A stretch of DNA of 63,665 bases, filler included, from Hausera hauseri (lineage: Eukaryota): assembly GCA_046269625.1 (NCBI GenBank). It is 10 parts of 10 records of this genome, joined end to end, with 100 filler letters (N's around TTAATTAATTAA, not from the genome) between each part and the next. Parts side by side here need not be neighbours in the genome. Positions count along the whole stretch, not along the records: positions 1 to 16,765 come from JBJURY010255513.1; 9 more parts are not named here. One strand, given 5' to 3'. Below are positions 118-60,012 of the stretch, piece by piece. The notes beneath the pieces were generated by a model. The model was not told the origin of the DNA. It worked only from the letters and a program-made list of their open reading frames with translations, and did no database searches. Both the position numbers and the translations under genes were made by a program. The number at the start of each line of letters is the position of its first letter. Within the stretch, counting starts at the first letter, position 1.

Positions 118-1641
118 TCAGTCATCGTCATCAACATCCACTGAAGTGGGGAGAGGGGCAATGAAAGCTGAAGGTGGCGGGTGTGCACTGAGAGGGAGGT
201 CGAACCAATTAACTGGGGGCGGAATGAAATTTGCAAGGTGTGGGTGAATCTGGGCAGCCGCTGGTGTCCAGATAGTGTCCAATTTGTTAAGACGAGATAA
301 GTGACGGAATAAGTCAAAAACATCATTGAGCATATTGGTGTAATTCAAAGTTCCAATAGAACGAATACGATTTATGCGGCATGCATCACGATAAGAAACA
401 AAACCCCATGGGCCTCTTTGTAATTCGATACTTCCCAGTATATCGTCATAACTTTGAGCAAAGCAGGCTAAGAACTGAGCAACGTCAAAAGTAACTAAGA
501 CACGTCCATAAGTGCATCGAGCCACATGCAACATGACTAGGTTGAAATCTGGAGCCGAGTCGAGCATTTGGAGGGAAATGCCATGAATGTGAGATTCGAC
601 ATTAGACAAACGCACTCGTGGGTTAATGAGTGTGGTATAACGCTGTATTAAGGAGTCGTTCTGAATTTCCCCCAGGCTTACTCCGATACATATTTTAATA
701 GCTCCAGAAAGAGCGGTTGTAAATCCCACGAGGAGGAGATCAGAATCTACTGGTTGTCTAGCTAACCTCATGAAAGAAGAAGAGTTCAATTCAGGAGGTG
801 GCAAGGGTAGTAAAGAACAATCCATCGTACGAGTTGTACCATTAGAGGACTGGGACCAATAATCGAGCCAAGGTGACGGAATAGTGTGTTCAATTTCAAT
901 CATAATAGTTGTGGGTACCGTGACAATTTGTATTTTCGGACCCATGTTATTCCATACCGATCGGGAAAAACGGATTGAGGCATACTGAGGAATAGGAATA
1001 TCAAATTCATCTGTTTGACGTGACCACTGAAACTTGAGTTGACCTTCAGCCACAGACAAAAGAGTATCATGAAGGGTATATTGTAAGTCCGGTTGTTCAA
1101 TCAAATCCTCAACAAAGGTTCGAAGTGGTAGTGTACCTTTGTGTCGAAAGCGGTTGATTATAATTGATCTATTTTGGAGGCTATTACCCTTTAACCAATT
1201 AGGTAATGAGAACGGTGTTTTGTAGCACACGGTAGGGTGGACTAGAGAATTGGCCTTAATGGATTTATATGCATTGTTAGAGCGGGCTATTTCTTGAATT
1301 TCGGATGGAGATTGCATATTAGCGATTTGTATCGGCAACCCGGGAAGACTGCGTAGGTGAAGACTCTGGGCTGTATTATCCACAAAACGTAAGGAGAATT
1401 CATCTGGCTGCGATGTTTCAATGTTAGATGATTGTGCTGGTCTGCCATCGGCGGGTATCTCGTCACCCAGGCCGTATAAGAAATTCACGGCATTGGGTGT
1501 TGCTGTATTGCCCGATGAGGGGATGACTGTTTTTCGCCCACGTAACCAAGTTAAATAAGTTGGCTCGGCCACTGAAGGTAAGGAAGAATAAGAAAAATTC
1601 GCCACAGCCATGCAGCTCGCAGCTGTAGCCAAAAGTAACCG
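118..1641 (-). CDS. ORF4, accessory protein with a degenerate DnaQ/DEDDh exonuclease-like domain; in frame with pol after one TGA
   Basis: 504+ codon ORF. The segment RYTTLINP...IHGISLQMLDSAPDF...GRVLV resembles the DnaQ-family F.TLINP...IHGIT.EML..AP.F...VLVAHN motif. Confidence 0.65.
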   Translation of the reverse strand, partial: RLLLATAASCMAVANFSYSSLPSVAEPTYLTWLRGRKTVIPSSGNTATPNAVNFLYGLGDEIPADGRPAQSSNIETSQPDEFSLRFVDNTAQSLHLRSLPGLPIQIANMQSPSEIQEIARSNNAYKSIKANSLVHPTVCYKTPFSLPNWLKGNSLQNRSIIINRFRHKGTLPLRTFVEDLIEQPDLQYTLHDTLLSVAEGQLKFQWSRQTDEFDIPIPQYASIRFSRSVWNNMGPKIQIVTVPTTIMIEIEHTIPSPWLDYWSQSSNGTTRTMDCSLLPLPPPELNSSSFMRLARQPVDSDLLLVGFTTALSGAIKICIGVSLGEIQNDSLIQRYTTLINPRVRLSNVESHIHGISLQMLDSAPDFNLVMLHVARCTYGRVLVTFDVAQFLACFAQSYDDILGSIELQRGPWGFVSYRDACRINRIRSIGTLNYTNMLNDVFDLFRHLSRLNKLDTIWTPAAAQIHPHLANFIPPPVNWFDLPLSAHPPPSAFIAPLPTSVDVDDDD

Positions 1642-4600
1642 TCATAATATTACCTCATAGTTTAGGTCATAAGTTTGACATCTGGGGTTTCGCATATGAG
1701 TTTTAGTATTCTTACTGTTGATTGTAAGATTTTCATACATACTTCCAATTTCTCTATCTGTATTTGGGGGGTGTTTTTGGAGCCAAAGAATAAGGACAGA
1801 AACTAAGACGACCGATCCTATAACGACTAGAAGAGCAATAATCAAGGAGTATACAACAAAACTGTCAACAGACATTTCCGTTACGGTTTCAATTGAAGGG
1901 GCCATACTTATAACATGGCGAAAACCATGAAGGTTCATTGAATCAGTCAATGTCTTGCACGGTAAGGGAGTCGTTCGTTGAGAAACGGAAGGATACTGTT
2001 TTTGTTCACTTTTGAATACAGGCGTTGCGCGAATTTGAAAATATCGTTGGGTAGTCGACAGGGCAGAGGTTATGATGTTATCACGTAATGACATTAGCAC
2101 AGGAAATTGCAGGATGGCGTTAAGTAACAAAAAATTGTTAAAACCAGGTACAGTAAAGCTTAGTTTCACTTTATCCTTACTGATATTTGATACCATAGTA
2201 CTATAATTGGTTTTAATAAGGATGTTATTGGAGGTGAGGTGCTTTACGTTAATATTAGCTGGAGTAAGGCATAATATTTTCAATGCTCTGTGATGTGACC
2301 CTATTACTACTGTGGTCAGATCCAACTTCTGTCTTATAGCAATCCAAGGGATTGTATAAATTTCCTTTAATTTATTGTCGAATGTTGTTGCTACTCCTTC
2401 CCACAAGTACTCTCCGGATATTTTTAACGGCTTGGCTGGAGCTTGGATCCATTGGAAAGTCAAATATCGATGTGCATAACTTACGTGGCAATTTAGTTGC
2501 AACCATACAGCTTCACTGTAATTAAATTCTTGGTGATCTATTCTAAGGGGTTCAAGGGCCTCCCCAAGCCTACTAATTGAGAGTGGGCAAATTTGTCCTA
2601 TTGAAACAGCCCGTAATTGTAGCCCCCTATGTTTTTCACACCAGAATAGTAAAACTGGGATTTCCCTGTGATATATAAATGTCGGTGCCTTCAGCAATTC
2701 GGAGTTCCATCTACTGATTTGTGTACTATTAACCCATTCTTCAATTACTTGCTGTAAGGCTTCTTCGTCCGAATGTACATAGTAGCAGTGGCCTCCTGGT
2801 GACTTAAACATACAATGGAATCGTTGGTAGCGGTGACGGCCTTGTACCAAAAAGATATTGACCTTAATGTTGTGAAGGAAGTCCGACACAAAGGTATATA
2901 AACGTAATTCATTCCTTTGCTTTGTCCATCCCCATTGAATTTTTATTCCGTGTGATAAAGATAATAAGCATAGCAATAAACAAAACATGTACAATATAGA
3001 AAACTTCGGCACGCCTAGATTTGTTGGAGCTAACTCGTTCCTGGTCTGGTTAATGCCAACATCCTGAGGTATTACCGTAACTAATTGTGTAGGGGCCTTT
3101 TTGCACCGATCTGCTGCTACAGTTATGATTTCGTCTCGCTTCCCGATTTTTTTTCGTATAAAAATGTTCGTTTCTGTAACATTTTCCACTTTATAGGGAC
3201 CTTTCCACGGGCGAGCTAATTTTGGTGACTTACCTTTTTTTACTGCAGGTTCCAAAAGCATCACGAAATCGCCTTGTTTGATTGAGTGAGGACGTGCCTT
3301 TTTATCGTAATTTCCCTTATATGTTTTCTGATAATCAAGTGTTAACGATTGTGCTAAGGCCCATGCTTTCGTCAATCGTTCCTTCAAATAGTTTACATAG
3401 TTCGGTTCATGTTTTGCCAGGGTCTCATCTGGAATTATTTCTAAATCCTTCGGCAGAAGTGGGTCACGCCCATACATAAGGAAGAATGGTGGTTGCTGTG
3501 TTGCCGAGTGTGGCGCAGTTCGCAAGGCGAACATACAAGCTGGGATGAACAAATCCCAGTCATCTTGTCTATCGTCCGTTACCGTAGCCAACATTGATAA
3601 TAATGTGCCATTTAATTTCTCGACCATACCATCACAGCAAGGGTGATAAGCAGCTGTTTTAAGCTTATATATAGAGAACAATCGGCAAACCTCTTGGAAC
3701 ATTTTATTTATAAATTCCGTTCCTTGATCTGTTAATATTTTCCTGGGAGCACCGTACCTGAACACTATTTCCTCGACAAATAATGCTGCAACAGTAAAAG
3801 CTGATTTATCAGCCATTGGAAATGCCTCTGGGAATCTAGTCAAGTAATCTACAAACACCAATATGTATTGGTTCCCGCTCTGCGTCTTCGGTAACGGTCC
3901 GATTATATCCATCGCTGAAAATTCCATGGGACTCGCTGGTGGTGGTATCGGATGCAACGGAGGTTTACATCGGTATCCCCTATTTCGTCTGGTCGCACAG
4001 ATCTTACAGCTTGCACACCATTGTTCGACATCCTTTTGAATTGTGCGCCAGTAATATTTTCGTTTAATTCTACCCAATGTCTTCTTATATGCAGGATGCC
4101 CTGCTAATAATCCGTCATGTTCTTGTTGCATAATGTCGTGTCGCCTAGATTCTGGTATCACTACCAACTGCCGATCATTGTACCAATAGCGTAATAATTC
4201 AGATGCAATAAGGTATTTTGCACCTTGACTTACCAAGTGTTGTATTAGTTCTTTATGAGAGGTATTAATTTTTCGTGTTCGCACAAATTCTCTGATTACT
4301 CTCAATTCCGCATCTTGCTCTTGTTGGTTAATCAGCATCTGAATTTCATCATCTGGGATATGTGCCGTAGTTATCTGGAAGGTCATTAATTGTGATATGT
4401 GTTTTGATTCACATCCTTCCTCCAAGCATTCTAGCTCTCGTTTAGTAGCGGGTCTACGTGACAACCCGTCCGCATTTTTATTATTTCTACCAGGCCGATA
4501 AAACACAGTTAAATTGTATGCTTGCAATTTTAGTTGCCACCGTTTTAGTCTTGAGTACGGATCTTTTACTGTTGAAAACTCTAACGGTGCATGATCTGTG

Positions 4601-6909
4601 AAGACTTTCACTTCATGACCCCATACGTAATATCGGAATTTTTCAATTGCAAAGACAATAGCCAACATTTCCTTTTCTATTACAGCATATTTTTGTTCAG
4701 TTTCCGACAAGGTTCTGCTTGCATACGCAATTACGTATTCCCATTTTGAGTCTGGTGGCATTTGTGATAACACAGCTCCCAATCCAGTGTTACTTGCGTC
4801 TGTAAATATAATGAATGGCAAGGAAAAGTCTGGATATCTGAGTATTGGTGCTGAAGACAACAGTTTCTTTAGTGTGTCAAATGATTCCTGGGTTTCTATC
4901 GTCCATAGGAATTTAGTTCCTTCATGCGTTAACGCAAATAATGGAGCTGCTATTGTACTAAAGTTTGGAACATGTTTTCTATAATAACCACACGTACCCA
5001 AAAACGCGCGTAGCTCTGTTATATTCTTCGGTATAGGCCATGCTGTGATGGCGGACACTTTTTCTGGGTTTACTTCTATGCCCTCAGCTGAAACAATGTG
5101 TCCAAGAAAAACAACTTTCAACATTGCAAATACACATTTCTTAAGTTTCAATTTGAATCCCCAAATTTCTAGTAAATCAAGAATTCTTTCGATATCATCT
5201 AGATGTTCGTCCAAGGTTCGTGAAAATATCACGATATCATCAATATAAACCATTGCGTGCGTACAGTCTAGCAGCATTGCCTCTAAGGCTTCTTGAAACG
5301 TTGAAGGTGCGTTACATAATCCAAAGGGCATTACATTGAACTCATATTGGCCTTTACCGGCGGAAAATGCTGTCTTATATTTATCCTCCTCAGCCAGTGG
5401 TACTTGCCAATACCCACTTTGCATGTCCATCGTTGTAAAATATTTGGAGCCTCGTAGTTTATCAAATATATCTTCCTGTAGTGGGAGTGGATATGAGTTC
5501 TTTACTGTTTGACTATTTAACTGTTGGAAATCCACACAAATTCTGGCTCCCCCGTCCTTTTTTGCTGCTACTACAATTGGCGATAGCCATGAAGAATTAC
5601 TTTTTCTGATGACATCATTTTCTAACATTTGTTGTAATTGACGGTTAACTTCTTCTTGCAGTGCATGTGGGATGCGATATGGTCGTTGCTTAATTGGCCT
5701 TTCATTTAATAAAGGGATGTGATGGACTACGCGGTCGGTTTTACCCAGGTCTGCATCTGATTTAGCAAAGGCCCTTAGGTGCCTTTTAAGAACACACAAC
5801 AGACGTATTTTATCTTTTCCAATTAAATCGGTTTTTATACTGTCCGCCTCTTCGAACGTGCTGATGCATTCTTCGGGCTGAATGATGTGCGATATTGCAC
5901 ATAACTGTCCAATAGTTGTATTTTGTCTGAGTACAACCGCTTGTCTATCGGTATTTACTACTCGAACTGGCAAATAGCCATCTTTAATGGGACTAATACT
6001 GCACGCTGCTTTTATTCCAAGCCTCCTATTTGAGGTTACATCAGGTTCGAATAGCATAGTTCCATTTACCATGTTTGGTGCATAACCTTGTATAATGTGT
6101 TCACTTGTGGGTTCCAATATGATTCCTTCTGGTACAATAACTACTTCCTTCCGGAATTTTACCGCTGGTATCGCGAGCTGTCCTGTAGCTAGGTTCAGAT
6201 ATCGTCCTGTACATTTACGTTGTAAATCAAGTCCCACAATTACATCCTCAACTAACTTATCGAATACTTTGAATGTGTGCTTCAGGCGTTTATTATAAAG
6301 TATTATATAAGTCGTCCAATAACCTACTGGCATTAATTTGTCGCCCCATCCTGATACAGTTGCTCGGTCCTCTTTCTTGGGGGGGGGCAGTTCAGATCTG
6401 TATCTCTCTGGTATACTCGATAATAACACTATTGAATCGTCACAACCAGTATCCACTAGAGCCACAACGTCCCAATCTTCGTGAATGGTTACTAAAGTAT
6501 ATGGCCTTTTCGTGTCCATCTTACTTTTACTAGATCGAAATGCACAGAAGTTACTAAAACTTGGTACTCTTACGTTCATGTTTTCGATTTCTGTATCCGA
6601 ATTTTCCTCATCTTCTGGCTTTATTTCGGTGATAGGTAATCTACTTGGTGTGACGATTTTTATGCCTTTCAACTGTTGTCGTAACTCTCGGTATTTAATA
6701 TATTTAGCTTTGCTACCGCTATATAACGCATCTAATTGATCATCTTTTAACTTCTCCAGACCATCTTTATCTGTTACGGGTAACTTGGGCAACGGTCTTC
6801 CCTGATTCCTAGGTTTGATTTGGTGCAGTCGAGTACAACTATTAATTTTATTGTCTCGTTCCTCACTCCTAGAATTCTTTATCCACCCCCATACATTTTT
6901 TTGGGTATT
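1642..6909 (-). CDS. pol: Pol polyprotein (aspartic protease, RT, RNase H, integrase) with in-frame C-terminal type I membrane protein extension
   Basis: ALVDTG; YIDD; TDAS...EKEMLA...TDH; HHCC; MDIIGP/TDQG/VEKLN; WKGPY. Then the signal-like FSILYMFCLLLCLLSLSHG and TM FVVYSLIIALLVVIGSVVLVSVLILWL. The frame is open from 6909. Confidence 0.93.
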   Translation of the reverse strand, partial: NTQKNVWGWIKNSRSEERDNKINSCTRLHQIKPRNQGRPLPKLPVTDKDGLEKLKDDQLDALYSGSKAKYIKYRELRQQLKGIKIVTPSRLPITEIKPEDEENSDTEIENMNVRVPSFSNFCAFRSSKSKMDTKRPYTLVTIHEDWDVVALVDTGCDDSIVLLSSIPERYRSELPPPKKEDRATVSGWGDKLMPVGYWTTYIILYNKRLKHTFKVFDKLVEDVIVGLDLQRKCTGRYLNLATGQLAIPAVKFRKEVVIVPEGIILEPTSEHIIQGYAPNMVNGTMLFEPDVTSNRRLGIKAACSISPIKDGYLPVRVVNTDRQAVVLRQNTTIGQLCAISHIIQPEECISTFEEADSIKTDLIGKDKIRLLCVLKRHLRAFAKSDADLGKTDRVVHHIPLLNERPIKQRPYRIPHALQEEVNRQLQQMLENDVIRKSNSSWLSPIVVAAKKDGGARICVDFQQLNSQTVKNSYPLPLQEDIFDKLRGSKYFTTMDMQSGYWQVPLAEEDKYKTAFSAGKGQYEFNVMPFGLCNAPSTFQEALEAMLLDCTHAMVYIDDIVIFSRTLDEHLDDIERILDLLEIWGFKLKLKKCVFAMLKVVFLGHIVSAEGIEVNPEKVSAITAWPIPKNITELRAFLGTCGYYRKHVPNFSTIAAPLFALTHEGTKFLWTIETQESFDTLKKLLSSAPILRYPDFSLPFIIFTDASNTGLGAVLSQMPPDSKWEYVIAYASRTLSETEQKYAVIEKEMLAIVFAIEKFRYYVWGHEVKVFTDHAPLEFSTVKDPYSRLKRWQLKLQAYNLTVFYRPGRNNKNADGLSRRPATKRELECLEEGCESKHISQLMTFQITTAHIPDDEIQMLINQQEQDAELRVIREFVRTRKINTSHKELIQHLVSQGAKYLIASELLRYWYNDRQLVVIPESRRHDIMQQEHDGLLAGHPAYKKTLGRIKRKYYWRTIQKDVEQWCASCKICATRRNRGYRCKPPLHPIPPPASPMEFSAMDIIGPLPKTQSGNQYILVFVDYLTRFPEAFPMADKSAFTVAALFVEEIVFRYGAPRKILTDQGTEFINKMFQEVCRLFSIYKLKTAAYHPCCDGMVEKLNGTLLSMLATVTDDRQDDWDLFIPACMFALRTAPHSATQQPPFFLMYGRDPLLPKDLEIIPDETLAKHEPNYVNYLKERLTKAWALAQSLTLDYQKTYKGNYDKKARPHSIKQGDFVMLLEPAVKKGKSPKLARPWKGPYKVENVTETNIFIRKKIGKRDEIITVAADRCKKAPTQLVTVIPQDVGINQTRNELAPTNLGVPKFSILYMFCLLLCLLSLSHGIKIQWGWTKQRNELRLYTFVSDFLHNIKVNIFLVQGRHRYQRFHCMFKSPGGHCYYVHSDEEALQQVIEEWVNSTQISRWNSELLKAPTFIYHREIPVLLFWCEKHRGLQLRAVSIGQICPLSISRLGEALEPLRIDHQEFNYSEAVWLQLNCHVSYAHRYLTFQWIQAPAKPLKISGEYLWEGVATTFDNKLKEIYTIPWIAIRQKLDLTTVVIGSHHRALKILCLTPANINVKHLTSNNILIKTNYSTMVSNISKDKVKLSFTVPGFNNFLLLNAILQFPVLMSLRDNIITSALSTTQRYFQIRATPVFKSEQKQYPSVSQRTTPLPCKTLTDSMNLHGFRHVISMAPSIETVTEMSVDSFVVYSLIIALLVVIGSVVLVSVLILWLQKHPPNTDREIGSMYENLTINSKNTKTHMRNPRCQTYDLNYEVIL

Positions 6910-9530
6910 TTACTACTTTTTATTTTTCGTTGCTTTGACCATTTGGATCCATAAACGCTCACTCTATCTGCTCCTCCACCACCATAATCTTCGTCTCGCT
7001 TTTCTCTCTCCCTCATCCACTGGGCCATAAATGCATGTTGTAAGCATCTGGCTAACGGCGGACAAAGTGCTGTTAGTATTTTCTTGGAACAACCAAAAAG
7101 TTGGAAATTTATAAATCCATTAGTTATTTGTGCGATTATCGTTCGTAGAATTTGCACTATGAAGTAAATAGCTAGAAATCCAGATGACACTTGTCCAAAC
7201 GTCATCATTCCCCCCCATAACTTTTTGAATATCGTCTTAGCTGCCTTGGTAAAATGATCCGGGCTTAAGATGTTTTCCCAGTTTGTTTTTCCATTTCCTG
7301 TATCAGTAACTTTCTGTGTATATGACACTATAAGCCTTTGTAATTGTTTCGGAAACAATAAGTATCTTCTTAATTTTTCCATACTAGCCTCATCGTACAA
7401 ACCTCCTTGAAAAAAATTAACATTATTGTCGAACTTCAATTGTTGTTTTAATGCCAGCATTGTCAGTTTCTTGGGAGTTATTATTTTCGTTCTTGACGGC
7501 ATCGTAACCCAGTGATCATGTCCAATCTTAAACAGTGGTGCAACGTTTCTTATGCACTCCTTTAATACCGTTGGATCTTCGGTTGGTATCAACATTACTC
7601 TCGTTATTGGTGCTACGTATCTTATGTGCCCATTATATTTTACGGCTATTTCATTGGTACATATCGTAGTATCTACCACTGGTACGTCAACTTCCCGACA
7701 CTGAAAGGTTACTAACCCTTCTCCAGTAGTTCTACCGAATACTCCTCGTTGTTTTGTTGGTAGGATTGGGGTATCTATCGAAGGGTTATGGGCTGCTACT
7801 GTGACTCGTAATGCCAATAGATCCTGTGTTATCAAGCAGTCGTTTTGGAGCATTTCCTTGTATATTTTATACTGATTATTGAGCATATAGTGGAACAGAT
7901 AATCCATTTTACCGTTGTAATATACCATTGGTTTAATCTCAGTTGGGTGCACTTGTTTTTGCGCATCTACTACTTCTGTTGTCTTAAGGTATATATCTTC
8001 GACGTTAGTAGAATATACCTCTGTTTTACATTTGATCACTATTTGTTTTCTTATCAATCGTATTGCATCATCGACTGTTGACATTAGGACTGCCGGTGTC
8101 TCAATCTCTGTTAACCGTTGTACGTCCGTATCCTCAGTGTGCGTCGGTGTTGGCTTTGAAAATCTAACACCTTTTGTAATATTGAACGTTACAGCTTTAA
8201 TGAAGGCTAGATTACAGGTTATAACTTCCACGTTCCAGGTAATTATCGAATCTGTGGTAAAACAATACCCATTACCATATACACAGTCCATCCGAATCAT
8301 TAGTTTCAATGTGTCAGCGTCAAACGTAATTTCTTTATCGGTAACTGTCCATGCATACAGATTTTGTACCACTATCCGTGATACTTCATCCACAGTTTGT
8401 CCTGTACATGTCCCGTCTTTACCTACCATACCTCCTTCATTTATTGTTAGGTATTTAATACCATTAACTATTGTTGTTATTTCTACCTTGTCGTTTACCT
8501 TCAACTTACCCAGTCTCACAGCCTCTTTGCAATCGTCCGGCAGCACTCTCTGGGGCTCATCTGGTGACGCTATTAATAGGTTCGTTGAGTGAGTATGGGC
8601 TTTGCCACAATGCCATTTTTTTGTTTGTTTCGTCAATTTACATTCCAACGCTCTTACTCGAAAAAATTTATTTTCCTGATATATATAATATTTTGTTGAT
8701 GGTTCTGTTATCAGTTTGTCCGGTTCGGCATCAGGGCATTTCTCTAGATCAACTAAGGAGTACGTGGCTCCTACTTCTGGTTTATCGCAATCAAATGCCT
8801 TGATCCCCTGCCCTTGAGGTAGACGCCATAAAACTAACATAATTAACAAGACACTCATCATTCCTTCCAAATTCAATCGTGGCGCATTATCCAATATTTC
8901 CTCAAAACCTTTTATTATTTGTAGAAAACCCTTTTCCATGTTATAGGGATTTTTAACGGGCCGACCTTGCTTTTGCTGGTATCCTCGTTCTGCTGGTTGT
9001 GGGATATGATTAAGGTCCAACAATTTGTCCCACCCACCAAATCGCTGTGCTCCCCCGGATAAATTATTCTTTGCAATCTCCATCGCAATCTCGTTATTAT
9101 TTTCAAAGTCCTCTTGCTTTTCACTTGACATCTGTACTCTCATTGCTAAATATACGAGGATTGCGATCATACGGTCCTTCGACACTGCTCCATCCTGCAT
9201 CCATTTTTGAATTATCTCACTATCCTTTAACGGATCGATTGAACTTGGTAATTCTTCCTTCGTTATTGCTTTTTCCATTTGCTGCAATACTTGTTTAAGG
9301 TGCCCTTCAATACCATGATCACCTTCTTTTTCCTCCTCTTGTGACCAAGGTTTGTCATCATCCTTGTATAAGATTTTATAAATTTTATAAAAAGTTTGTT
9401 TAATTTGTCTACTCTCCGGATATAAATTATTCGTCTCGGTCGTACGCAAAGCTCGGGTTAGTGTGTCAACACTAATTTGTTCTATTAGATTTTTTTTGGT
9501 CTCCCTCTTGGTTTCTTTCTTATCTGGGCT
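6879..9530 (-). CDS. env: Envelope glycoprotein, chuvirus/gB-like (class III-type), preceded by a ~200 aa helical leader and internal signal sequence
   Basis: Hydrophobic MMSVLLIMLVLW is followed by GIKAFDC...TYSLVDLEKC, a Cys-rich ectodomain (DGTC, QNDC, FQC, TICTNEI), GGLY, and the TM region GQVSSGFLAIYFIVQILRTII. The frame is open from 9530. Confidence 0.8.
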   Translation of the reverse strand, partial: SPDKKETKRETKKNLIEQISVDTLTRALRTTETNNLYPESRQIKQTFYKIYKILYKDDDKPWSQEEEKEGDHGIEGHLKQVLQQMEKAITKEELPSSIDPLKDSEIIQKWMQDGAVSKDRMIAILVYLAMRVQMSSEKQEDFENNNEIAMEIAKNNLSGGAQRFGGWDKLLDLNHIPQPAERGYQQKQGRPVKNPYNMEKGFLQIIKGFEEILDNAPRLNLEGMMSVLLIMLVLWRLPQGQGIKAFDCDKPEVGATYSLVDLEKCPDAEPDKLITEPSTKYYIYQENKFFRVRALECKLTKQTKKWHCGKAHTHSTNLLIASPDEPQRVLPDDCKEAVRLGKLKVNDKVEITTIVNGIKYLTINEGGMVGKDGTCTGQTVDEVSRIVVQNLYAWTVTDKEITFDADTLKLMIRMDCVYGNGYCFTTDSIITWNVEVITCNLAFIKAVTFNITKGVRFSKPTPTHTEDTDVQRLTEIETPAVLMSTVDDAIRLIRKQIVIKCKTEVYSTNVEDIYLKTTEVVDAQKQVHPTEIKPMVYYNGKMDYLFHYMLNNQYKIYKEMLQNDCLITQDLLALRVTVAAHNPSIDTPILPTKQRGVFGRTTGEGLVTFQCREVDVPVVDTTICTNEIAVKYNGHIRYVAPITRVMLIPTEDPTVLKECIRNVAPLFKIGHDHWVTMPSRTKIITPKKLTMLALKQQLKFDNNVNFFQGGLYDEASMEKLRRYLLFPKQLQRLIVSYTQKVTDTGNGKTNWENILSPDHFTKAAKTIFKKLWGGMMTFGQVSSGFLAIYFIVQILRTIIAQITNGFINFQLFGCSKKILTALCPPLARCLQHAFMAQWMREREKRDEDYGGGGADRVSVYGSKWSKQRKIKSSKIPKKMYGGG

Positions 9531-11983
9531 TCAGTATTTCGTTGCATCGTTCCTTTGGGCAGTACTTCGTCACCTAGTTCTGGTACTTCTGCAAATACCC
9601 ATAACGGTTCCGGTATCTCCTTTAATTGATTAATCGAATTATCTGAACCTGACTTGAGGGGCCGGATGTATTCTGTTGCACCCAATACCTTATTTATTTG
9701 TCGTTCCAATTTGTGTTGATCATCGTCCCTTTTCCTTTGGGATTCCTCAAGATATATTTCAACAATTTCGTTAGGATCCATTCCAGACATAACTCCTAAT
9801 TCCGTCCATTTTATATCTAAGTCATTTACTTGACGCCCCATGAACCTAATAGTAATAACAATATCCTCGTCATTACAACGCCACTGATTTTCAGGTAACA
9901 ATATCTTTAATATCTTCTGTATCGGTGCCTCAGGGTCTATCATAGCTTGTGTTTCAGTGTATACCTTTCCGTCAATTATCCTAAATTGAAGCAAAATGTC
10001 ACCTTCCTCTTTTTGAGGCTTAAAGCCTTCCTTTTGAGCGAATATTTGCAATATCAACCGTGCCATATCTCTTCGCGGAGCTCCATCTGCCGCTTGGGCT
10101 ATGAGATATTTTCTAACTTTGATAATCCGTGTTTTATGCTCGGTTATCCACTCACGGAGTTCATACATTTGATCCATTATTGTTGGTGTTACATCATTGG
10201 TTGGGTCGTTCTCTATTTTCTCGAGTAATGCCCTGAACTGTTCTTCGTGGTAGTCGATTTCATTTGCATTATCTGGCTCTTCAGCAGTTGCTGGAGGCGT
10301 TGTTACTTCATAATCTTCTAGTATCATTATAGGTATATCTTTATCTTTTTCACCTTCCTCCCTTGTTTTGGTTAGTACGTCTGTATTGTTATCGTTTAGC
10401 GGTGCTATCTGATTAAGGTGTAGCGATTTCAATCTTTCAAACTGGGTTCGCATATCATCAAGTTCCAATTTGTGTTGTTTCATTTGAAAAATCATTTCTT
10501 CCCGTGTTAAAGACATATCTTCTGTCTCAGGGGATACAGAGATTATACCTTCCTCCCGGAGACCTTGTGAACTATTAGTATGTGCTATCTGATTAGTCGC
10601 ATCCATTTCTTCATGCATCTGATAGCAATTCGTGTCATCCATTGGATTAAATGATGCACTTGCATCATACACAGAGTGCATCAGTGCCATGCTAGTCGGA
10701 TTAATATTGCCATACCTTATCGGGCACTTCTTTGCCAGATGTCCTGCTTGGCCACAATTGAAACAGTTCTTAGGTTGCGATACACCAAAATTTTGTTGCG
10801 TTGCAGGCTGTATCAAGCCTTGTTGTTGCTGTATGGGACATGTTTTTGCTGTATGTCCCCTTTGGCCACAAGCGTAGCATTGCTTCGGAGATTGTGCATG
10901 TGGCGGAGTGGTAAACGGCATTTGTGCCATATATGGGCATGACTTCGCCAGGTGTCCAAAGTTTTTACAATTATGGCACTGTATAAGCCCTTTTGCATTG
11001 ATATTATCGTGTTCGAGTATGGTTGTTTGGTTTCTGTTACCTGTGGATCGTAATGAATACGGCATAGTTTTGGCAGAACTTCCCATTGGCGCGACCTGCA
11101 ATCGATTGACTGCAGCACCGGTTGACATAGCATTTGATCCTGTTGGTTGTCGTACATTGCCGCCGTCTGTTGGGGACGTTTGTCGTTGTATTGGTGGTTG
11201 ATGTGGACGCACTCCGAGTCCCATATTCCATTGAGGCCTAGTGTATACCATTGGATGCCTCGGTGGTCGCAACCATTGTTGTTGCGGCCATCCTTTTCCA
11301 AGGTCCACGTGTTTGTTCCATGTGTTACGACCTGTTGGTTGGTTAATATTAAATGTTGATGACTGAGTAATTTGCGCATGAGGTATAGACGGTGACGTAT
11401 CTTGATGTAATAAACCTCTCTGTAATATTTGTGACATTTTAACATCGACATTTTCATGAGCTATAGCCTTTTTAACTAATTCACTAAATGTCGTGGCCTC
11501 ACTCTCGATTAAATGTCGCTGTACTTTGGGGTTTCGTAAACCCGTTATGAAGCAATCCACAAGAATAGGCTCTGTTTCAAAAACCTTCTTGTCGTCGGCT
11601 TTTTTATCTCTATTCTCGTTTTCCAGCGCGACTTTATATCGTTTTGCTAAAGCTTGTAAGGCTAGAGCGAACATATTCACGGATTCTCCCGCATGCTGCA
11701 CGCGTGATCGTAAATGTCTTAATCGGGCATTGGACGAAGGGTCCGGATCGACACATTTTCTCAATCTTTCAACTATTTCCTTCCATGGTTTATCCGCCTT
11801 GTCTATCTGAAGGTATGCCTGCAGTGCCACACCTTCCAAGTACCCTACCAATTTCTTTACTTTCTCTTTATCATCCCAGTCGACGCTATCCGCCTGTGCT
11901 TCATACATAGTAATGAAGTCGTCAAAGGCGGCCGGCTCACCGGCATATCTATTAATATTTAAGCCTGCATATAATTGCGCCAT
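9485..11983 (-). CDS. gag: Gag with capsid-like N-terminus, 3 CCHC zinc knuckles, SUMO/ubiquitin-like domain and C-terminal AT-hook
   Basis: Retrotransposon-gag N-terminus (WDDKEKVKKLVGYLEGVAL; QHAGESVNMFALAL). Knuckles CHNCKNFGHLAKSC, CYACGQRGHTAKTC and CFNCGQAGHLAKKC. Ends RKKPRGRPKK. Confidence 0.9.
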   Translation of the reverse strand: MAQLYAGLNINRYAGEPAAFDDFITMYEAQADSVDWDDKEKVKKLVGYLEGVALQAYLQIDKADKPWKEIVERLRKCVDPDPSSNARLRHLRSRVQHAGESVNMFALALQALAKRYKVALENENRDKKADDKKVFETEPILVDCFITGLRNPKVQRHLIESEATTFSELVKKAIAHENVDVKMSQILQRGLLHQDTSPSIPHAQITQSSTFNINQPTGRNTWNKHVDLGKGWPQQQWLRPPRHPMVYTRPQWNMGLGVRPHQPPIQRQTSPTDGGNVRQPTGSNAMSTGAAVNRLQVAPMGSSAKTMPYSLRSTGNRNQTTILEHDNINAKGLIQCHNCKNFGHLAKSCPYMAQMPFTTPPHAQSPKQCYACGQRGHTAKTCPIQQQQGLIQPATQQNFGVSQPKNCFNCGQAGHLAKKCPIRYGNINPTSMALMHSVYDASASFNPMDDTNCYQMHEEMDATNQIAHTNSSQGLREEGIISVSPETEDMSLTREEMIFQMKQHKLELDDMRTQFERLKSLHLNQIAPLNDNNTDVLTKTREEGEKDKDIPIMILEDYEVTTPPATAEEPDNANEIDYHEEQFRALLEKIENDPTNDVTPTIMDQMYELREWITEHKTRIIKVRKYLIAQAADGAPRRDMARLILQIFAQKEGFKPQKEEGDILLQFRIIDGKVYTETQAMIDPEAPIQKILKILLPENQWRCNDEDIVITIRFMGRQVNDLDIKWTELGVMSGMDPNEIVEIYLEESQRKRDDDQHKLERQINKVLGATEYIRPLKSGSDNSINQLKEIPEPLWVFAEVPELGDEVLPKGTMQRNTEAQIRKKPRGRPKKI

Positions 11984-12108: not shown

Positions 12109-12121
12109 GGCGTGGTCGCCA
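12109..12121 (-). promoter_or_regulatory. Primer binding site, probably tRNA-Arg
   Basis: Minus-strand TGGCGACCACGCC lies between the LTR end and gag. It is complementary to a ...CGUGGUCGCCA tRNA 3' end, as in animal tRNA-Arg(UCG) isodecoders. Confidence 0.7.
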
Positions 12122-19299: not shown

Positions 19300-22200
19300 A
19301 TTCTGATCATCTTGCGTACAATTGTAGTTTGCTGTTCTTTCTCACATTTTTTGTCTTTTTAAATACAATTGGGTTTGCTGTTCTTTTTGCTTCAATACTT
19401 CCGAAATTTTGTAATTATTTAACTCGGAGTGAGTGACATCTTTTTCAAGTTTTCTGATTGTTGAATTCAATTGCTCAATCTCAACGGTACTGCTTTCTTT
19501 AGAATAACGAACTTCATTTTTAAGTCTTCTTATTTTCAGCCTGGTAATTATTTTTATATTGTTCTTTCTCTTCTCTCTCTTTGCTAATTGCTAATTTTAA
19601 TTGAGCTTTCTCGTCGACAAACTGATTTTCTTACTATGTGAAACCTTTTTCAAACGATCTATTTCTATTTCCAAACGGGTATGAGAAGATTTATTGTGTT
19701 TACGAATTTCTCGGTTGTCCGTTCTTTAAACCTTAAATCCCGAAACACTGCTCTTAAGCTTGTTGTAGTTCAAGAATCTTAGCATTCAATGTTGTTTCGA
19801 TCTTTTGAATCTGTTCGTCGAATTTTTTTCAATTCGATGAATTTTATTATTAAGCTCGAAGATAACATCTTCGTAATGTGAAACCCGTGTATTGTGTTGT
19901 TTAAGTAATTTTTCGTATTTTTCCCGATTCTCATCGAATTCTTCTTTAGCAATTTTATAATCTTCGCAAAATCTTCATAATTTTCAATTCCCTTTCGAAG
20001 GTTAAGTTCTAGATTTTCTATTTTCTCACTGACGATAGATAAGGGTGTTTTAATGTTTGCTAATTCAACATCTTTCAGATTCTTTTCACACTCAATCTGA
20101 TAGATTCGGTTCTGAAGAATAAGAATATTGTCTTTGTATTCATTCCTAGATTGATCGTACGACAAAGATGAATTATCCAAATTCTTTTGAAGATCGGAAA
20201 TAATATCGGATTTTAATACGATATTTTTTTCATGATCCTTAATTTGTTTCCTTAAATCTGCAATTTCCTTTTGATGATTCTGTAATGCTACTTCAATCTG
20301 CGATATTCGATTGGTTTTACAACGGATTTCTTCATCCTTTCTCTCCATTGTCACACAATTGGTTTCCGACAAATTTGTTAATGATTCAACTTGTTTTTCA
20401 TAGCATTCAACGGTCTTTTGAAATTCTGAAATTTTATTCTCCAAGTTTTCATTAAGCTTCTTAGAGTTTTGCAATTCCGTCGATTTGATTCGAAGTAAGT
20501 CGAGCTCTTCGTTCAATATTTTCTCTTTCAATTGCAAAGTGTCTATATCATTATCTTTTTCTGAAATTAGTTTTTGATAATTTTCTTCCAACTTTGAAAC
20601 TTTATCTGTCGAATCCGAATATTTCAAAAAGCAAATATCGTATTTGCATTCCAAAATTCGTATTTTGTCTATTAGATCATCGTTCGCCTTTCTGATCAAA
20701 TCCAATTCATGAGTTTTTAACACAATCTCCTCAGTTTTCTTCGATTCTGCAATTTTATACGTTTCAAAATCTTTTCCCAATGAACTATTCCTTGAAATCA
20801 AATTACGAATTGTAGTAACAATGTCTAATGTAGTACTTTGAGTACGCGGATTATCTTTAATTTCAGAATCGGTCACTGTACCCAATACTTCGCAAACGCT
20901 ATCTAGTTTATTTTGTAAATTAAAAATGAAGCTTTCTTTCTCTTCCATTGATATTTCATTCATTTCCTCTAACTCTGAAATTTTGGCCACGCTGCAATTG
21001 TACTCCTCGAGGCAAGTATTGTATTTTTCTTCAACAAGTAAGATATTGTTTAACATACGTTCGTTATCTTCCAATAATTTTTTATTCGTTTCCTCTAACT
21101 CAGAAATTTTCGTCTTGCATCCATTGTACTCCTCAAGGCACGTATTGTATTTTTCTTCAACAATTAAGATATTATTTAAAACACTTTCATTATCTTCCAA
21201 TAATTTTTGATTCGTTTCCTCTAACTCGGAAATTTTTGTCATGCAACCATTGTTTAAAACGCCATTCATATCTCGTTTAATTGACTCGATCTCTATCTCC
21301 TTTGACAAAATAAGCTCTGATATTCTACAATTTTCAGCTTGAAGCCTATTGATGTCGTCCTCATAAGTATGGATATTCTTTAAAAGATTTTCAATTAAGT
21401 CTAAAACACTGATTGAGACATTTTCATAACTTCCAGCACAGTCTGATGTTAAATTTTCGGCTTCTTTATTAACTGAACCTACCAAACATCGAATCTTCTC
21501 AATGAAAGAAAGATTATCCTTCATAATCCATTCATTTTCTTGTAATTCCAAAGAAGCCTCTTCTAATTTGGTCAAACAATCTTGATATTCGTACACGATC
21601 CTTTCTAAATCTGTTTTCATTTCCAACATCTCATCCGAATGTTTACATTCTAAATTAATTTTACAATTTTTTAATTCACTTTCGAAATACTCTTTATATT
21701 CACAGATTCGAAGATTACAGTCATCGGTCAGTTTTTGAATAGCTGTTTCATATGATTTAACGGTGTTCTCTATTTCTACAGTTTTCTCCTGATTACTGAC
21801 TTTCAAACCCGTGACCCGAATCTGAATATCTTTGTGATTAGCAACCAAATTGTTATTAATGCTGATTAAATTGAAAATGTTTTCGGTAATTTGAGTTATT
21901 TCTTCAGCAATTCCAGAAAACATTGAATTTTGTGCTTTCAACTGAATCATTTCAATTTTGCAGAGTGATTTTTTAACTTTTAATAAATCGAAGCATTTAC
22001 CTGATTTCTAACCAAATTTAATTTTGCATTTTTTTTCTTCATACTCGGTTATTGAACCTTACCAAGAATCAAAATTTTCTTTTATCACGTGTATAAAATC
22101 GTTCAAGTCAATACTCACTTCCTTGTCCATTTACTGGCATACAAATGACAAGTTAGTTTGACAGCTATCTAGATCATTCTTCCACGATTTAATTTCTGAT

Positions 22201-25976: not shown

Positions 25977-26961
25977 ATGGCCAACCGAACTGTTCGAGAT
26001 GCTCATACAATTCATGGAAAAAATCCCCAAAATTTAATTGAAAAGGTTATTAGAACTCGGATATATGATTCTAGATATTGGAAAGAAGAATGTTTAGCAC
26101 TTACATGTAAGTTGTAAGTTTTTTGTTATTTTTTATTTAAATTTTGCTTTAGCTGAACTCTTAGTTGATAAAGCTTGTGAATTAAAATATATTGGCGGTG
26201 TTTTTGGTGGAACCAATACTCCAACTCCATTCTTGTGTTTATTGCAAAAGCTACTTCAGATCCAACCAGATAAAGATATTGCAATCGAATTTATCAAACG
26301 GAATGAGTTTAAATATTGTCGAGCATTAGGAGTCATGTATTTGCGTATCACCGGAAATGCTGTAGTAATTTACAAATATTTGGAAACGTTATATAATGAC
26401 TATTCCAAGTTGAAGAGGCAAGATCAAGACGAAAAGTTCACGATTACCCACATGGATGAATTTATCGACGAATTGTTGAGAGAAGATCGAGTCTGCAGTA
26501 TTGTTTTGCCGAGATTACCAAAACGAGATGTTCTCGAAGGGTCTAATGAACTCGAGCCAAGAGTTTCAATACTCGACGAAGATTTGCAAGATCTAATGTT
26601 ACAAGTCGTTGAAGAAGAAGAAGAAAAAGAGGAAATGAGAAAACGATCAGACAAAATTACGGCTAAGGAAGAAGTCAGTCGACGAAAACGAAGCCGTTCA
26701 AGAAGTCGGGATAGACGAAAATCAAGAAGTCGTTCACGAAGCCGAGGGAGATCTCGTTCACGTGGTAGATCACGATAGAGATCGAAAGACCGTGCTCGTA
26801 GACGTTCGCCGAGACGTGATCATAAAGATCGTAAACATGATAAACGGGAGCGTTCTCGCGATAGATCAAGAGAACGAAGATACGACAGAGAATCGTCACA
26901 AGATCGCAATAAAAGAAAAAGTGATCGAAAAGACTATGATAAACATAAGGACAGATATTAA
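25977..26961 (+). CDS. PRP38: Pre-mRNA splicing factor PRP38 (PRPF38A-like); exons 25977-26106 and 26153-26778, or to 26961 if the TAG is bypassed
   Basis: MANRTVRDAHTIHGKNPQNLIEKVIRTRIYDSRYWKEEC; PTPFLCLLQKLLQIQP; HMDEFIDELL; RS tail; 46-nt GT-AG intron. Confidence 0.93.
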
Positions 26962-34589: not shown

Positions 34590-37500
34590 CCCTCTCATGG
34601 GAATTATTGGAGAAACCAGTTCTGGGTTGGCATATATAAAGGACAATTTTGTCCTCATGATTTCGGTATCTAATTTACAGTCATTCATTATCATTTTGTG
34701 ATATAATTCCATTATTCCAACTTGTCCTTTGTAGTAGAATTAATTGTCTTTGTTTTTCAAATAATCCTCAATCCGGACATCCTGCGTTTCTAGCTGGTAA
34801 GTCTTCACATTTATTTCCGTTTCTGCGACGAAAAATGCCTCATAATTAGTGGCGAACATCACTACATCGCAACGAAAGATCATTTCTTTTTTAATAAATT
34901 TCAGTCCATGCTGATCCAAGATTAATATAGTAGATATAAGGTGTTCCGATACGTCCTCGCGTGTGCTTGAGTTGGTATCGGATTTATCTACATATCGCTT
35001 TCCGGTAGTTTCATTAAACCTTAATTCCTTGATTTTGATAAAATTACAAAAAAACTTCTTCCGGAAGGCGGTTCCCAGATTATAACCGAACTTCTAAAAG
35101 CACAGGTTCCGTCTTCTAAATAATATTTTTGATTTTCAGTGTAACTTAGTGACGCTATGGAACATTACTCTTGTGATCGCATCTCCAATTCATAGAAATC
35201 CACCACTACCACATTTGCTTGTAATCCTTTTCCGGTATCATATTCTGCGCCGTAACAATGTACACTGTACATATCTAACCTTCCGGCTACTACCTTGTAC
35301 GCCCTGATTATCTTTCCCGGTTGTATTTCTAATTCCATACTATCCCATTGTACTCTTCCGGTCTCCTTAGCCTGTTTGCAGTGCTGGCGTTCTAAGTTCA
35401 TAGGGATAATCGGAGTTGTCGGTTTAATTATTGAGGAATGCCCGCGTACTAATATACAATGGAAAATACTATGAGATCGTCTCAACATACATTCCATTCC
35501 ATCTAACTATATCAGTTCTTGTTGTTGGTACAGGAAATAATTTTTTTCTATTGTTTCCAACTTGTGCGGTCTAGCATTTTCGCACACGTCTAGATCCATT
35601 GGGGAATATCTCTGTTCTAGTTTAAACTTATCGCAGTCGTAGACGGTAACAGCGCTTATATATTTTATTAGCATCATCAAAGTGAGTAGGCTGATTAACC
35701 AATTTGATTCATTTTTCCGATAACCAACATCCTCTGTTGTTAAAATACGTAACATATCATCGAGTTTATTGCTGATCCGTCTGTCGTCTTCCTTGTCAAA
35801 CAGTTTTGACCAATTTACTTCGCAGGGCAATATTTCTGCTGCTTTTCGTGCTAATCTTATAACTCTATTGATTTCATTCTCTAGATTAGGGTTTATTTTG
35901 ACAGCTAAGTATAGTAATACTTTTCTCAATTCCTAGTTGGTGTTTTCTACCATGACCTTTTCGATTACCGATTCATCGGCTAAGTTACTTTTCGATAACT
36001 TAAAACGTGAACTTCGCATCATTCTGGCTTCATCGAATATTATCTTTTCTTTATCATATAATACATCACCTCGAAGGTTCGAATAATTTACAATTCGTAT
36101 TAAATTCTTTATTAACTCATTTAATTCCTCATTGTTTGTACTGAGAGTCGGAATCGACAACGGCCTCAGTTCTCTAATCAATTCTCCATTATAGGCCACC
36201 TCTTCTCGCGTTTTCTTGGGCCTACCAATTGGGCGTTTCGGCCTTGGGCCCTTAGCGGTTAGGTCACTCAGTAGTACTAAATTTATATCGTATTGTTCCT
36301 TGTTTTCACCAGTTTGTAAATATTCGAAATACATTGCAGCATCTCGGACTCCCATAATCTGTCCCACGCATTGCTATGACCTTGCATTACGTGTGGCTTC
36401 CTCTTTTGTCTGCTTATTAGCTATGGTTGCTACTATTCGACTTGTTTCGTCGGGAATAATCCCGACATCTATTAATTGTTCTAGGTCGTCGAGTATTCTA
36501 CCTCTAAAGTAAAATCTATAATTTAACTCGTTTCTTCCGCCGTTATTTAATAACCAGTCTCTTACGTCCCTCAGATAGGAATATGTAGTTAATTCACATT
36601 CTTTGTCATCCATCCACTCGTACGATATCATTACTTTCATTGTTACCTGAGGTTTAGCCCTCAAGATTTTAGCGTATTCTCTTATCAAAAGTTTCTGCAC
36701 CATGCTATAAATCGTATTCTTACTAGATAATTTAGTTAATGTCGGAATAAGTTGTCTTAACTTATTTTCGGTAATGTTTCCGTTAATTAGTTCGATTAAA
36801 TCCCTTTCATTTAGCGCTGAATCCAGGAACATCTCCACGTTGAATCTCCCACTCTGCGGACGTGTCTCTACTTCATTTAGTTGTACCGGAGTCGTGGGTT
36901 TTTCGGCAATCATCGCATCTAAATAAGCATCCCATTCCGGTTTGTTTTCAACGTCTAGAACTCTATAGTCCGCTAAGGCTATATTTGTTCTATGTACATT
37001 TCCTCGGATTTCTTCCTATCTTGGTTGTATTTCCTTCATCTGTGTAGTTCGGAATCCTACTGCGTTTCCACAAGCATACTGAATCATTTTCAGTAATTTG
37101 CCTAATTCATTAGAATTGATAAGTCCTTTTTGGTGATAATCTGTTAGTTCAACAATTACATCTCTTTGCCATATTTGTACGAATTCTCGCTTGTTTTTGA
37201 TTTCTGATTCGGTAAAAGCATATTTGTTCCGGTAGATTCCGAGCTCTTTTACTAATTTATCTAACCTTGTTGCTTATTGTTGGGTTTTAATACAGGTTTC
37301 TTCAACCTGTCTTATTTTAGGCATCAATTGTTTCATCTTATCATCATTAATCTTTGCCATTTCTACTAGTAGGAAGGCAAATTCATACATCTCATTTATA
37401 ATTTTTGAGTCAGGATCTATTGCGTCAAGCAATTTCTTTACAAACTTAGATTCCTGAAAACTAAGATGTTGGTCATCTTTTATCTTTTTTAACTCGGAAT

Positions 37501-38621: not shown

Positions 38622-38721
38622 NNNNNNNNNNNNNNNNNNNNNNNNNNNNNNNNNNNNNNNNNNNNTTAATTAATTAANNNNNNNNNNNNNNNNNNNNNNN
38701 NNNNNNNNNNNNNNNNNNNNN

Positions 38722-42635: not shown

Positions 42636-42639
42636 GCAG

Positions 42640-59552: not shown

Positions 59553-60012
59553 NNNNNNNNNNNNNNNNNNNNNNNNNNNNNNNNNNNNNNNNNNNNTTAA
59601 TTAATTAANNNNNNNNNNNNNNNNNNNNNNNNNNNNNNNNNNNNNNNNNNNNGGTTCATTCAAATTGAACAAATCTGATTGGTCGGCACAAGACAGTGCG
59701 CGTTGACATGGTTATATTTTTCATTATTTAAAAAATCTTTTCGGAGAATGGTTAGGTTTTTCTGCTCCTCTCCTGTCTTTATTTATTTCTAGAATTGTAA
59801 CATTGAAAATACTGATGTGTTACTTAGTCGAGCGATAGATGAGGTGCTGAGCTTTCCAAAATGTAAGAGTAAAAACGAATATCTGATCGATTGTATGAGA
59901 AAGCTGAGATAGCAATTGGATATTACATATACTTATGGAGATAATGAGATCAAAATGTTAGGTTTGAAGCCCATGATATCACGCCAATTGTTCAAAAGCC
60001 AACAGTTGAAGA

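Follow-up and report, generated by a model that had tools for sequence, protein, structure and literature searches.

A likely worn-down SUMO/ubiquitin-shaped domain and an AT-hook motif at the end of Gag in a gag-env-pol gypsy element of Hausera hauseri

The Gag protein of a gag-env-pol Ty3/gypsy element of Hausera hauseri likely ends in a worn-down domain of SUMO/ubiquitin shape (residues 663–745), and its last residues carry an AT-hook motif. The element lies in the window, i.e. the whole stretch of 63,665 nucleotides analysed (GCA_046269625.1; ten parts joined end to end); coordinates are collected in Table 1. The tail as a whole is best explained as a non-conjugated docking domain combined with an AT-hook/NLS that would act as a chromatin tether (probability roughly 0.55). 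A SUMO-like domain is already known from planarian Burro elements; the present one would be another member, found in an 832-aa Gag with an AT-hook end.

Table 1: Features of the element; positions are those of the window.
Feature	Position	Strand	Remarks
PBS-like TGGCGACC	12114..12121	minus	upstream of gag; spotted by eye
gag ORF	9485..11983	minus	832 aa/832 codons; capsid-like N-terminus, three CCHC knuckles (about residues 335–421), long C-terminal extension
Divergent ubiquitin-like (SUMO-leaning) domain	9749..9997	minus	Gag 663–745; no di-Gly
AT-hook motif KPRGRPKK	9491..9514	minus	Gag 824–831; also candidate nuclear localisation signal
A_AAA_AAA heptamer	9491..9497	minus	gag frame, two codons before stop; env frame is −1; encodes PKK of the AT-hook
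env ORF	6879..9530	minus	883 codons from stop to stop; located between gag and pol
Two short BH1/BH2-like (Bcl-2) motifs	9021..9194	minus	N-terminal extension of env frame; by eye
C_AAA_AAA	6897..6903	minus	at −1 env/pol overlap, again PKK; putative non-canonical slippery site
pol ORF	1642..6909	minus	protease, RT, RNase H, integrase (PR-RT-RH-IN), followed by ~460 extra residues that contain two hydrophobic segments
ORF4	118..1641	minus	in frame with pol, behind TGA-CGG

Element layout: The order is gag-env-pol-ORF4, the env is of gB type and the coding region spans 11.9 kb. The gag ORF was assigned by its three CCHC knuckles (Pfam scan, E 4.9e-14); a PNMA match in the same ORF was weak (E 0.027). 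All peptides quoted in the initial annotation were located in this single ORF. Residues 227–843 of the env product matched the Monjiviricetes fusion glycoprotein (PF24664, E 4.9e-68); a signal-like hydrophobic stretch is found at 8826–8861 (minus strand, env codon 224), and the first 84 codons of the frame are devoid of Met (none before codon 85). The second half of ORF4 gave a weak DnaQ/RNase T-like match. No LTR pair was present among the repeats of the window; the element runs off the left edge, beyond which the 3' LTR would be expected. GC outside the element is mostly 25–40%, which favours a role of the AT-hook in tethering. The sequence is genuine: contigs of run X1, possibly the source of the window itself, were identical (0 differences) over 9300–9550 and 9552–10700; a contig of run X2 matched 9553–10002 with 1 difference and has Arg at G716, a position otherwise invariant; contigs of runs X3 and X4 gave no match over the domain.

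Sequence comparison of the domain: The segment runs from ILLQFRII (Gag residues 663–670; 9974–9997) to IVEIYL (residues 740–745; 9749–9766) and has 14–21% identity to SUMO/ubiquitin with ~13 inserted residues. The C-terminal di-Gly of SUMO and ubiquitin is absent from it, as the initial annotation had stated; Gag has a single Gly-Gly, at residues 274–275. Global alignment with 2 full-length SUMOs gave z 5.3 (0 of 1000 shuffles as high), domain boundaries and scoring scheme having been picked after a local profile test had failed; with 9 ubiquitins z was 0.8, i.e. not above shuffles; controls under the same scheme: real ubiquitin z 6.8, the UBX domain of the window itself z 3.4. By this measure the domain is closer to SUMO than to ubiquitin. 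In a scan against two real SUMOs (87-aa windows in every register of all ORFs of at least 100 aa; null mean −16.7, sd 9.0) it ranked first among 8,686 windows, scoring 28.25 versus 13.0 for the runner-up. Local methods were blank: 1149 of 5000 shuffles scored at least as high as the domain with a 3-sequence SUMO HMM, and HMMs built from 3 SUMOs, from 104 or 9 ubiquitins, or from both ranked it no better than shuffles, the true UBX control failing as well. Pfam returned no family at E ≤ 10, Rad60-SLD/ubiquitin included (real SUMOs and ubiquitins: 49–113 bits); the PDB sequence search matched no SUMO or ubiquitin chain, and no local alignment to the UBX protein of the window was obtained.

Structure evidence: ESM Atlas returned 30 look-alikes (recognition 3020, scores 0.90–0.93), sharing 148–158 features (typical same-family value 170); four of them were named, all as Rad60-SLD/ubiquitin sets, and 26 were unnamed, the top three being 74–86 aa long. 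The AlphaFold model seeded with SUMO/ubiquitin (pLDDT 82) had its five strands and two helices arranged as in a beta-grasp, a result that is partly circular and stands without a control; its nearest folds were Nip45 SLD2 (top Foldseek match), Get5 UBL and SUMO, and fold matches at Z 9.7–8.2 were all beta-grasp, with SUMO and other UBLs within 1 Z and not separated. The unseeded single-sequence model had pLDDT 46, and the good model therefore depends on the seeded alignment. Searched with the unseeded model, Foldseek had 0 hits at E ≤ 0.001 and VIA reached at best Z 4.5, with one UBL in 48th place; neither gave a notable beta-grasp match, and this model is to be regarded as uninformative and not as a refutation of the beta-grasp. 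The integral ubiquitin-like domain suggested earlier is upheld by global alignment, by the scan and by ESM Atlas; no unbiased structure prediction gave the fold. Residues 663–745 very probably adopt a beta-grasp.

Copies and homologues: Constraint is suggested by a divergent copy that is ungapped across 9797–9930 and in which F714 and G716 are kept through silent changes; 6 of the 13 differences listed are silent (0.25 expected, P 0.08), and the residue is altered in 6 of 12 changed codons. The survey of homologues that had been proposed found none: whole Gag (7,997 candidates), Gag 600–832 (447 candidates) and Gag 640–770 among shorter proteins (48 candidates) were all negative, and exact look-up recovered neither of 2 proteins. 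The Gag tail had a single match among 1.84 billion representatives, an LRR protein aligned over 24 residues outside the domain, which was rejected as chance. A metagenome search for related loci yielded 1 distant gypsy element without env; viral contigs had no match for env, pol or PRP38, and the phage search was negative.

AT-hook and frameshift junctions: The AT-hook consensus of HMGA type is an R-G-R-P core with basic flanks, and KPRGRPKK has both; unlike the HMGA-type motif, it is single-copy, sits at the extreme C-terminus and is dual-coded with a slippery heptamer. From composition, 4e-5 occurrences of PRGRPK are expected in Gag; five other GRP sites occur in the ORFs of the window, one of them IGRPKK. 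Pfam listed no AT-hook, but its filters can miss a single short motif. The motif had been described as following the domain; it is present, but 78 residues lie between the two. The initial annotation missed that its last three codons (PKK) are likely also the gag-env frameshift site: judged from sequence, the A_AAA_AAA heptamer is likely a site of programmed ribosomal frameshifting. The gag/env and env/pol junctions are both −1 overlaps and both encode PKK. RNA folding behind the gag/env heptamer gave no significant structure (z −0.9 to −1.1), and no stimulatory structure was found behind the two junctions (z −0.7 to −1.1). In favour of frameshifting are the reading frames, the heptamer and the lack of Met before env codon 85, well ahead of the signal-like stretch at codon 224. 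With good probability, ribosomes would slip at A_AAA_AAA to give Gag ending in ...RGRPKKI as the majority product and Gag-Env(-Pol) as the minority one, RGRPKK being retained in both.

Known systems: Planarian Burro/GYPSM1 giant gypsy-like LTR elements are described, in the available part of the review, as carrying a Ubi2/SUMO-like PF11976 domain between the three CCHC knuckles of Gag and a mononegaviral-type env (Arkhipova and Yushenova 2019, PMC6431247), a precedent that removes the novelty in Gag implied by the initial annotation. The order there is three-knuckle Gag, SUMO-like domain, then env before pol, the same as here if the fold call holds. Burro is given there as a 30 kb element whose one in-frame ORF of ~4,900–5,100 aa includes MATH, BIR and ankyrin domains, whereas here three frames with −1 overlaps are used; none of these three domains was found in the four ORFs (Pfam scan, E ≤ 1). 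Gag here ends in an AT-hook, a term absent from PMC6431247. A Bcl-2-like neighbour, expected from Burro, gave nothing in Pfam, PDB or ESM Atlas; the by-eye resemblance in the env frame is to the BH1 and BH2 motifs of Bcl-2. GAG-ENV-POL errantiviruses with HSV/gB-type env are known from Nematoda, Bryozoa and Platyhelminthes (Chary and Hayashi, PMC13524379) and share gene order and env class with the present element, whose env, judged by eye, resembles the six Schmidtea C1a rows most closely and differs from the ten bryozoan rows shown; 'ubiquitin', 'SUMO' and 'AT-hook' do not occur in that paper or its 7 supplements, nor 'frameshift' or 'exonuclease' in the main text. Troyka (PMC12440569) was rejected, no env appearing in the available part of its description. 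The SLDs of Rad60/Esc2/Nip45 (NFATC2IP) are likewise integral SUMO-shaped domains without di-Gly in proteins with a DNA-binding element; compared with them, the Gag domain lacks the acidic residue of the Ubc9 backside contact and a Pfam Rad60-SLD match, is single and has insertions.

Proposed function: The domain is likely a beta-grasp that derives from SUMO, is not conjugated and belongs to the type described for Burro; it is predicted to dock a partner via a surface that is no longer that of SUMO or ubiquitin; the tail probably acts as a nuclear tether, the AT-hook being predicted to grip AT-rich DNA. By analogy, the tail, on Gag or released by the protease of the element, might travel with the pre-integration complex and hold it on chromatin, a tentative proposal at somewhat less than even odds. 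Chromatin tethering of this sort is known from MLV p12 and from the Gag tail of foamy viruses.

A captured stable fold may instead serve as a structural spacer without a specific host partner, keeping the long Gag extension soluble or presenting the Gag/Env boundary to the protease, with RGRPKK mainly an NLS or a basic RNA-binding tail whose sequence the slippery site has shaped. In favour of this, positions of the core are retained but known binding surfaces are not, half of the changed codons of the divergent copy alter the residue, and the heptamer accounts for PKK, which appears a second time at the env/pol junction; slippage does not, however, need RGR before PKK, and a SUMO-like domain recurs in the same slot of Burro, which suggests long retention. 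This reading is regarded as unlikely.

The initial annotation had favoured a SUMO mimic or decoy: the domain, held on chromatin by the AT-hook, would bind Ubc9 or SIM-bearing silencing factors and blunt SUMO-dependent transposon silencing. Such a role accords with the global alignment and with Nip45 SLD2 as top match of the seeded model, although fold matches fail to separate SUMO from other UBLs. Smt3 F37, K38, K40 and R55 have a role in the SIM groove; by eye they align to A, M, D and E, the register of strand 2 being uncertain because this strand aligns with gaps. For binding to the backside of Ubc9, Asp68 is a key residue of Smt3, and Rad60 and NFATC2IP require the equivalent acid; the Gag residue aligned with it, which precedes the invariant Gly, is Met715 (replaced by Ile in the divergent copy). 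According to the available parts of the sources, Esc2-type proteins join a DNA-binding region to SUMO-like domains without conjugation features (PMC7849368) and ERVs are silenced by SUMO2 and TRIM28 (PMC10144533). Both SUMO mimicry and ESCRT recruitment, the second role proposed earlier, are weakened because alignment shows loss of the Ubc9-binding acid, of the Phe and the basic rim of the SIM groove, and of the Ile44 patch; the domain is probably no SUMO decoy, a role that we consider to have a low probability.

Also improbable is a reading of the element as a compact, frameshift-regulated Burro cousin with a chromatin-anchored SUMO-pathway antagonist as Gag tail: dual coding of AT-hook and frameshift site would let every product keep the AT-hook, which would park the SUMO-shaped domain on DNA of the element itself. 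This antagonist would belong to a counter-defence kit together with a Bcl-2-like domain, another membrane protein encoded downstream of integrase, and a DnaQ-type nuclease that is catalytically dead and produced by readthrough of a stop codon. That the segment is no beta-grasp but a chance alpha/beta stretch resembling SUMO to the eye is improbable: Pfam, PDB, the unseeded model and the local profiles were blank or uninformative and the boundaries and global scoring were late choices, but the all-register scan still put the domain first by a wide margin, the ESM Atlas result is independent of the boundaries chosen and names only ubiquitin-fold families, and Burro offers a published precedent in the same slot (PMC6431247, available part).

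Retroviral release is driven by late domains and Gag ubiquitination, and a ubiquitin fusion is able to replace a late domain. A built-in ubiquitin recruiting ESCRT for budding would suit an enveloped element whose Gag has no PTAP/PSAP, PPxY or YPxL motif, but it is very improbable, as the domain is not ubiquitin-like above shuffles and, in alignment, Ile44, whose patch is the binding surface of ubiquitin, becomes Arg713 (Glu in the divergent copy), His68 becomes Glu and Val70 becomes Tyr.

Significance: In the literature searched, the Burro domain occupies one sentence of one review, the available part of which reports no test, and with ~5,000 residues the Burro polyprotein is difficult to work with; here a domain of this kind lies at the end of a Gag of ordinary size and so offers an easy 88-residue target for structure and binding tests. 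Were it to antagonise SUMO-dependent silencing, against which the sequence evidence leans, it would stand as a rare case of a transposon encoding its own counter to piRNA-type repression. If the domain proves common to flatworm-type gag-env-pol elements, it would be an old part of the lineage and not a by-product of gigantism.

The layout of the Ty3/gypsy-type element (gag-env-pol-ORF4), its frames and its motifs were read directly (table below). The gag ORF was assigned by three CCHC knuckles (Pfam, E 4.9e-14), with PNMA as a further, weak match; the peptides that the initial annotation had called SUMO/ubiquitin-like span Gag residues 663–745 (window 9749–9997, minus strand), hereafter the domain. 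KPRGRPKK, described there as following it, is present at residues 824–831 and does not adjoin it, 78 residues lying between; the domain is free of di-Gly, as had been claimed, the sole Gly-Gly of Gag being at residues 274–275. Contigs from two of four sequencing runs (X1–X4) cover the domain: those of X1, possibly the window's own source, are identical to the window over 9300–9550 and 9552–10700; the X2 contig has one difference over 9553–10002.

Features of the element and of the rest of the window
Feature	Position	Strand	Remarks
gag ORF, 832 codons	9485–11983	minus	domain and AT-hook at its 3' end
env-frame N-terminal extension, helical	9020–9490	minus	BH1-/BH2-like motifs by eye; slot of the BCL2-like domain of the planarian element Burro
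env ORF	3' of gag	minus	PF24664, Monjiviricetes fusion glycoprotein, E 4.9e-68
pol ORF	3' of gag, same strand	minus	protease, RT, RNase H, integrase; gypsy order
pol extension past integrase, ~460 residues	1645–3018	minus	signal-like 1298–1322, transmembrane-like 1678–1712 (Pol residues)
ORF4	118–1641	minus	fourth ORF, in frame with pol behind TGA-CGG
Second, broken retroelement	35507–39570	minus	RT 38953–39570, E 1.2e-31; frames in pieces
742-codon ORF	19779–22007	minus	internal 126-nt tandem duplication; no Pfam family
PRP38, host-type gene	26098–26778		
DNA primase large subunit, host-type gene	42565–43041		
FAF1/UBX protein, host-type gene	60010–60936		

The domain is real and probably correctly called; a beta-grasp fold, predicted from the model and alignments below, is given a probability of about 0.85. 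The domain gave no Pfam family at E ≤ 10 and no match among PDB sequences; the survey of homologues that had been proposed came back blank for the Gag tail, for whole Gag and, among shorter proteins, for residues 640–770. Among 1.84 billion representatives the tail matched a single LRR protein, outside the domain, and this match was dismissed as chance. SUMO references: five loci, minus one of 43 aa and one duplicate, leaving three (two full length); ubiquitin references: 121 loci, 104 distinct, nine under 80% identity; Pfam check of five SUMO/ubiquitin references: 5/5 passed. A His-tagged yeast SUMO fusion construct was seen in two bacterial assemblies on 6,623-base contigs (149–859 of reference locus L004; L007), probably vector contamination.

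With local profiles the domain did not rise above shuffles (SUMO profile, 1149 of 5000 as high), and the window's true UBX domain, the positive control, was missed too. Global alignment, tried afterwards, gave for the domain z 5.3 to SUMO (0/1000 shuffles as high) and z 0.8 to ubiquitin; controls against SUMO: UBX z 3.4, ubiquitin z 6.8. When SUMO was scanned in every register over all ORFs of at least 100 aa, the domain ranked 1st of 8,686 scan windows (28.25; next 13.0). AlphaFold on the single sequence gave pLDDT 46 (strands 8–13 and 54–59, helix 33–40), and fold searches with this model were uninformative; ESM Atlas returned 30 matches (scores 0.90–0.93; 26 unnamed), all four with a family belonging to Rad60-SLD/ubiquitin sets, at 148–158 shared features, a level at which distant relatives and chance hits both fall. 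Seeded with 12 SUMO/ubiquitin rows (14–21% identity), AlphaFold gave a beta-grasp of pLDDT 82, low only in the insertion loop, a result partly circular by its choice of rows and obtained without a control. Structural neighbours of the seeded model: Nip45 SLD2, Get5, SUMO and Ddi2; VIA: Z 9.7–8.2, rmsd 1.9–2.8, SUMO not being separated from other UBLs. The domain resembles SLD2, yet falls outside that class. That it is not a beta-grasp, for which the blank Pfam, PDB and local-profile results would speak, is improbable given its rank in the scan, the families named by the Atlas and the Burro precedent.

PRGRPK is expected 4e-5 times in Gag. The last gag codons, CCA AAA AAA ATC TAA, include, read in that frame, the heptamer A_AAA_AAA, and env is open in −1; the junction of env and pol shows the same −1 shift and again encodes PKK, at a non-canonical C_AAA_AAA. 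The word CC(A/C)AAAAAAAT occurs at both gene junctions (9499 and 6905, minus strand) and nowhere else in the element. Because the PKK codons form the slippery heptamer, PKK is explained by recoding; RGR is not. Frameshifting at the gag end is likely on this codon pattern, and Gag-Env made by a −1 slip would carry RGRPKK just as Gag does; no stimulatory RNA structure stood out behind the junctions. Codons 1–84 of env contain no Met, and its signal-like stretch lies at 224, which fits translation by frameshift, a spliced env message being the alternative. Weaker QGRP motifs occur on the minus strand at 8975 (end of the env-frame extension) and 6810 (pol start), and an AT-hook-like RPIGRPKK at 36235 in the broken retroelement. 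By title or abstract start, no report of an AT-hook in an LTR-retrotransposon Gag was found, subscription journals being mostly outside the search.

Comparison of copies gave weak evidence of selection on the domain. A divergent X1 copy has 23 differences and no gap over 9797–9930; among the 13 listed, six are silent versus 0.25 expected (P 0.08). This copy retains F714 and G716; its core changes I712V, M715I and V719I are conservative, unlike I710T, R713E and Q700L. Residue 716 is changed in the X2 contig (G716R), and a base change common to five X1 contigs would, read alone, give E742K. An inert spacer is an unlikely description of the domain.

In the proposed mechanism the AT-hook/NLS would hold the Gag tail on AT-rich host DNA, and the domain would dock a partner through a non-canonical surface. 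This tether role is tentative and drawn by analogy; MLV p12 and the foamy-virus Gag tail are its analogues. The SUMO mimic or decoy of the initial annotation is unlikely: in the available parts of PMC7849368 and PMC11065178, Asp68 of Smt3 is a key residue for binding the backside of Ubc9, and an acid at the corresponding position is required in SLD2 domains, whereas in the alignment Met715 precedes the invariant Gly where Smt3 (L004; numbering counted by hand) has Asp68. By eye, with strand 2 gapped, the SUMO Phe and basic residues that we take to line the SIM groove align to Ala, Met, Asp and Glu. An ESCRT budding aid, likewise suggested, is very improbable: ubiquitin Ile44, presumably part of the binding patch, aligns to Arg713, and the lack of a classical late motif in Gag keeps the idea alive but weak. 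The late motifs sought were taken from the available part of PMC10144533.

By eye, the first 190 residues of the env frame carry motifs resembling what we take to be BH1 and BH2 patterns; a Bcl-2-like domain there was not supported by Pfam, the PDB or the Atlas. TGA-CGG between pol and ORF4 is presumably a stop-codon readthrough context. ORF4 residues ~300–450 show weak similarity to exonucleases of the DnaQ/RNase T type (PF00929, E 0.0067; PolC exonuclease 2p1j, E 0.045); since the first-motif Asp and Glu are replaced in the alignment by Gly and a gap, ORF4 may encode a catalytically dead nuclease. In the available part of PMC5408684, LTR elements of rotifers have DEDDy ORFs with catalytic residues intact. 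The pol extension, possibly a second membrane protein by its predicted segments, gave no convincing Pfam family.

Elements of nematodes, bryozoans and flatworms that combine the gag-env-pol order with an env of herpes gB type are described in the available part of PMC13524379; by eye, the present env follows its six Schmidtea C1a rows and is unlike the ten bryozoan rows shown. In the available part of PMC6431247, the planarian giant elements Burro/GYPSM1 have three knuckles in Gag; a PF11976 domain of Ubi2/SUMO-like type is flanked by MATH and BCL-2 domains, and an env of mononegaviral type separates gag from pol. The element resembles Burro, yet falls outside Burro proper. The domain, not recognised in the initial annotation as standard for Gag, is of a type already reported, as far as that source goes, within the broad group to which this element belongs; no report beyond it, judged by title or abstract start, combines a SUMO-like domain, Gag and env. 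The present element adds a compact version split between frames, and an AT-hook whose codons double as the slippery site.
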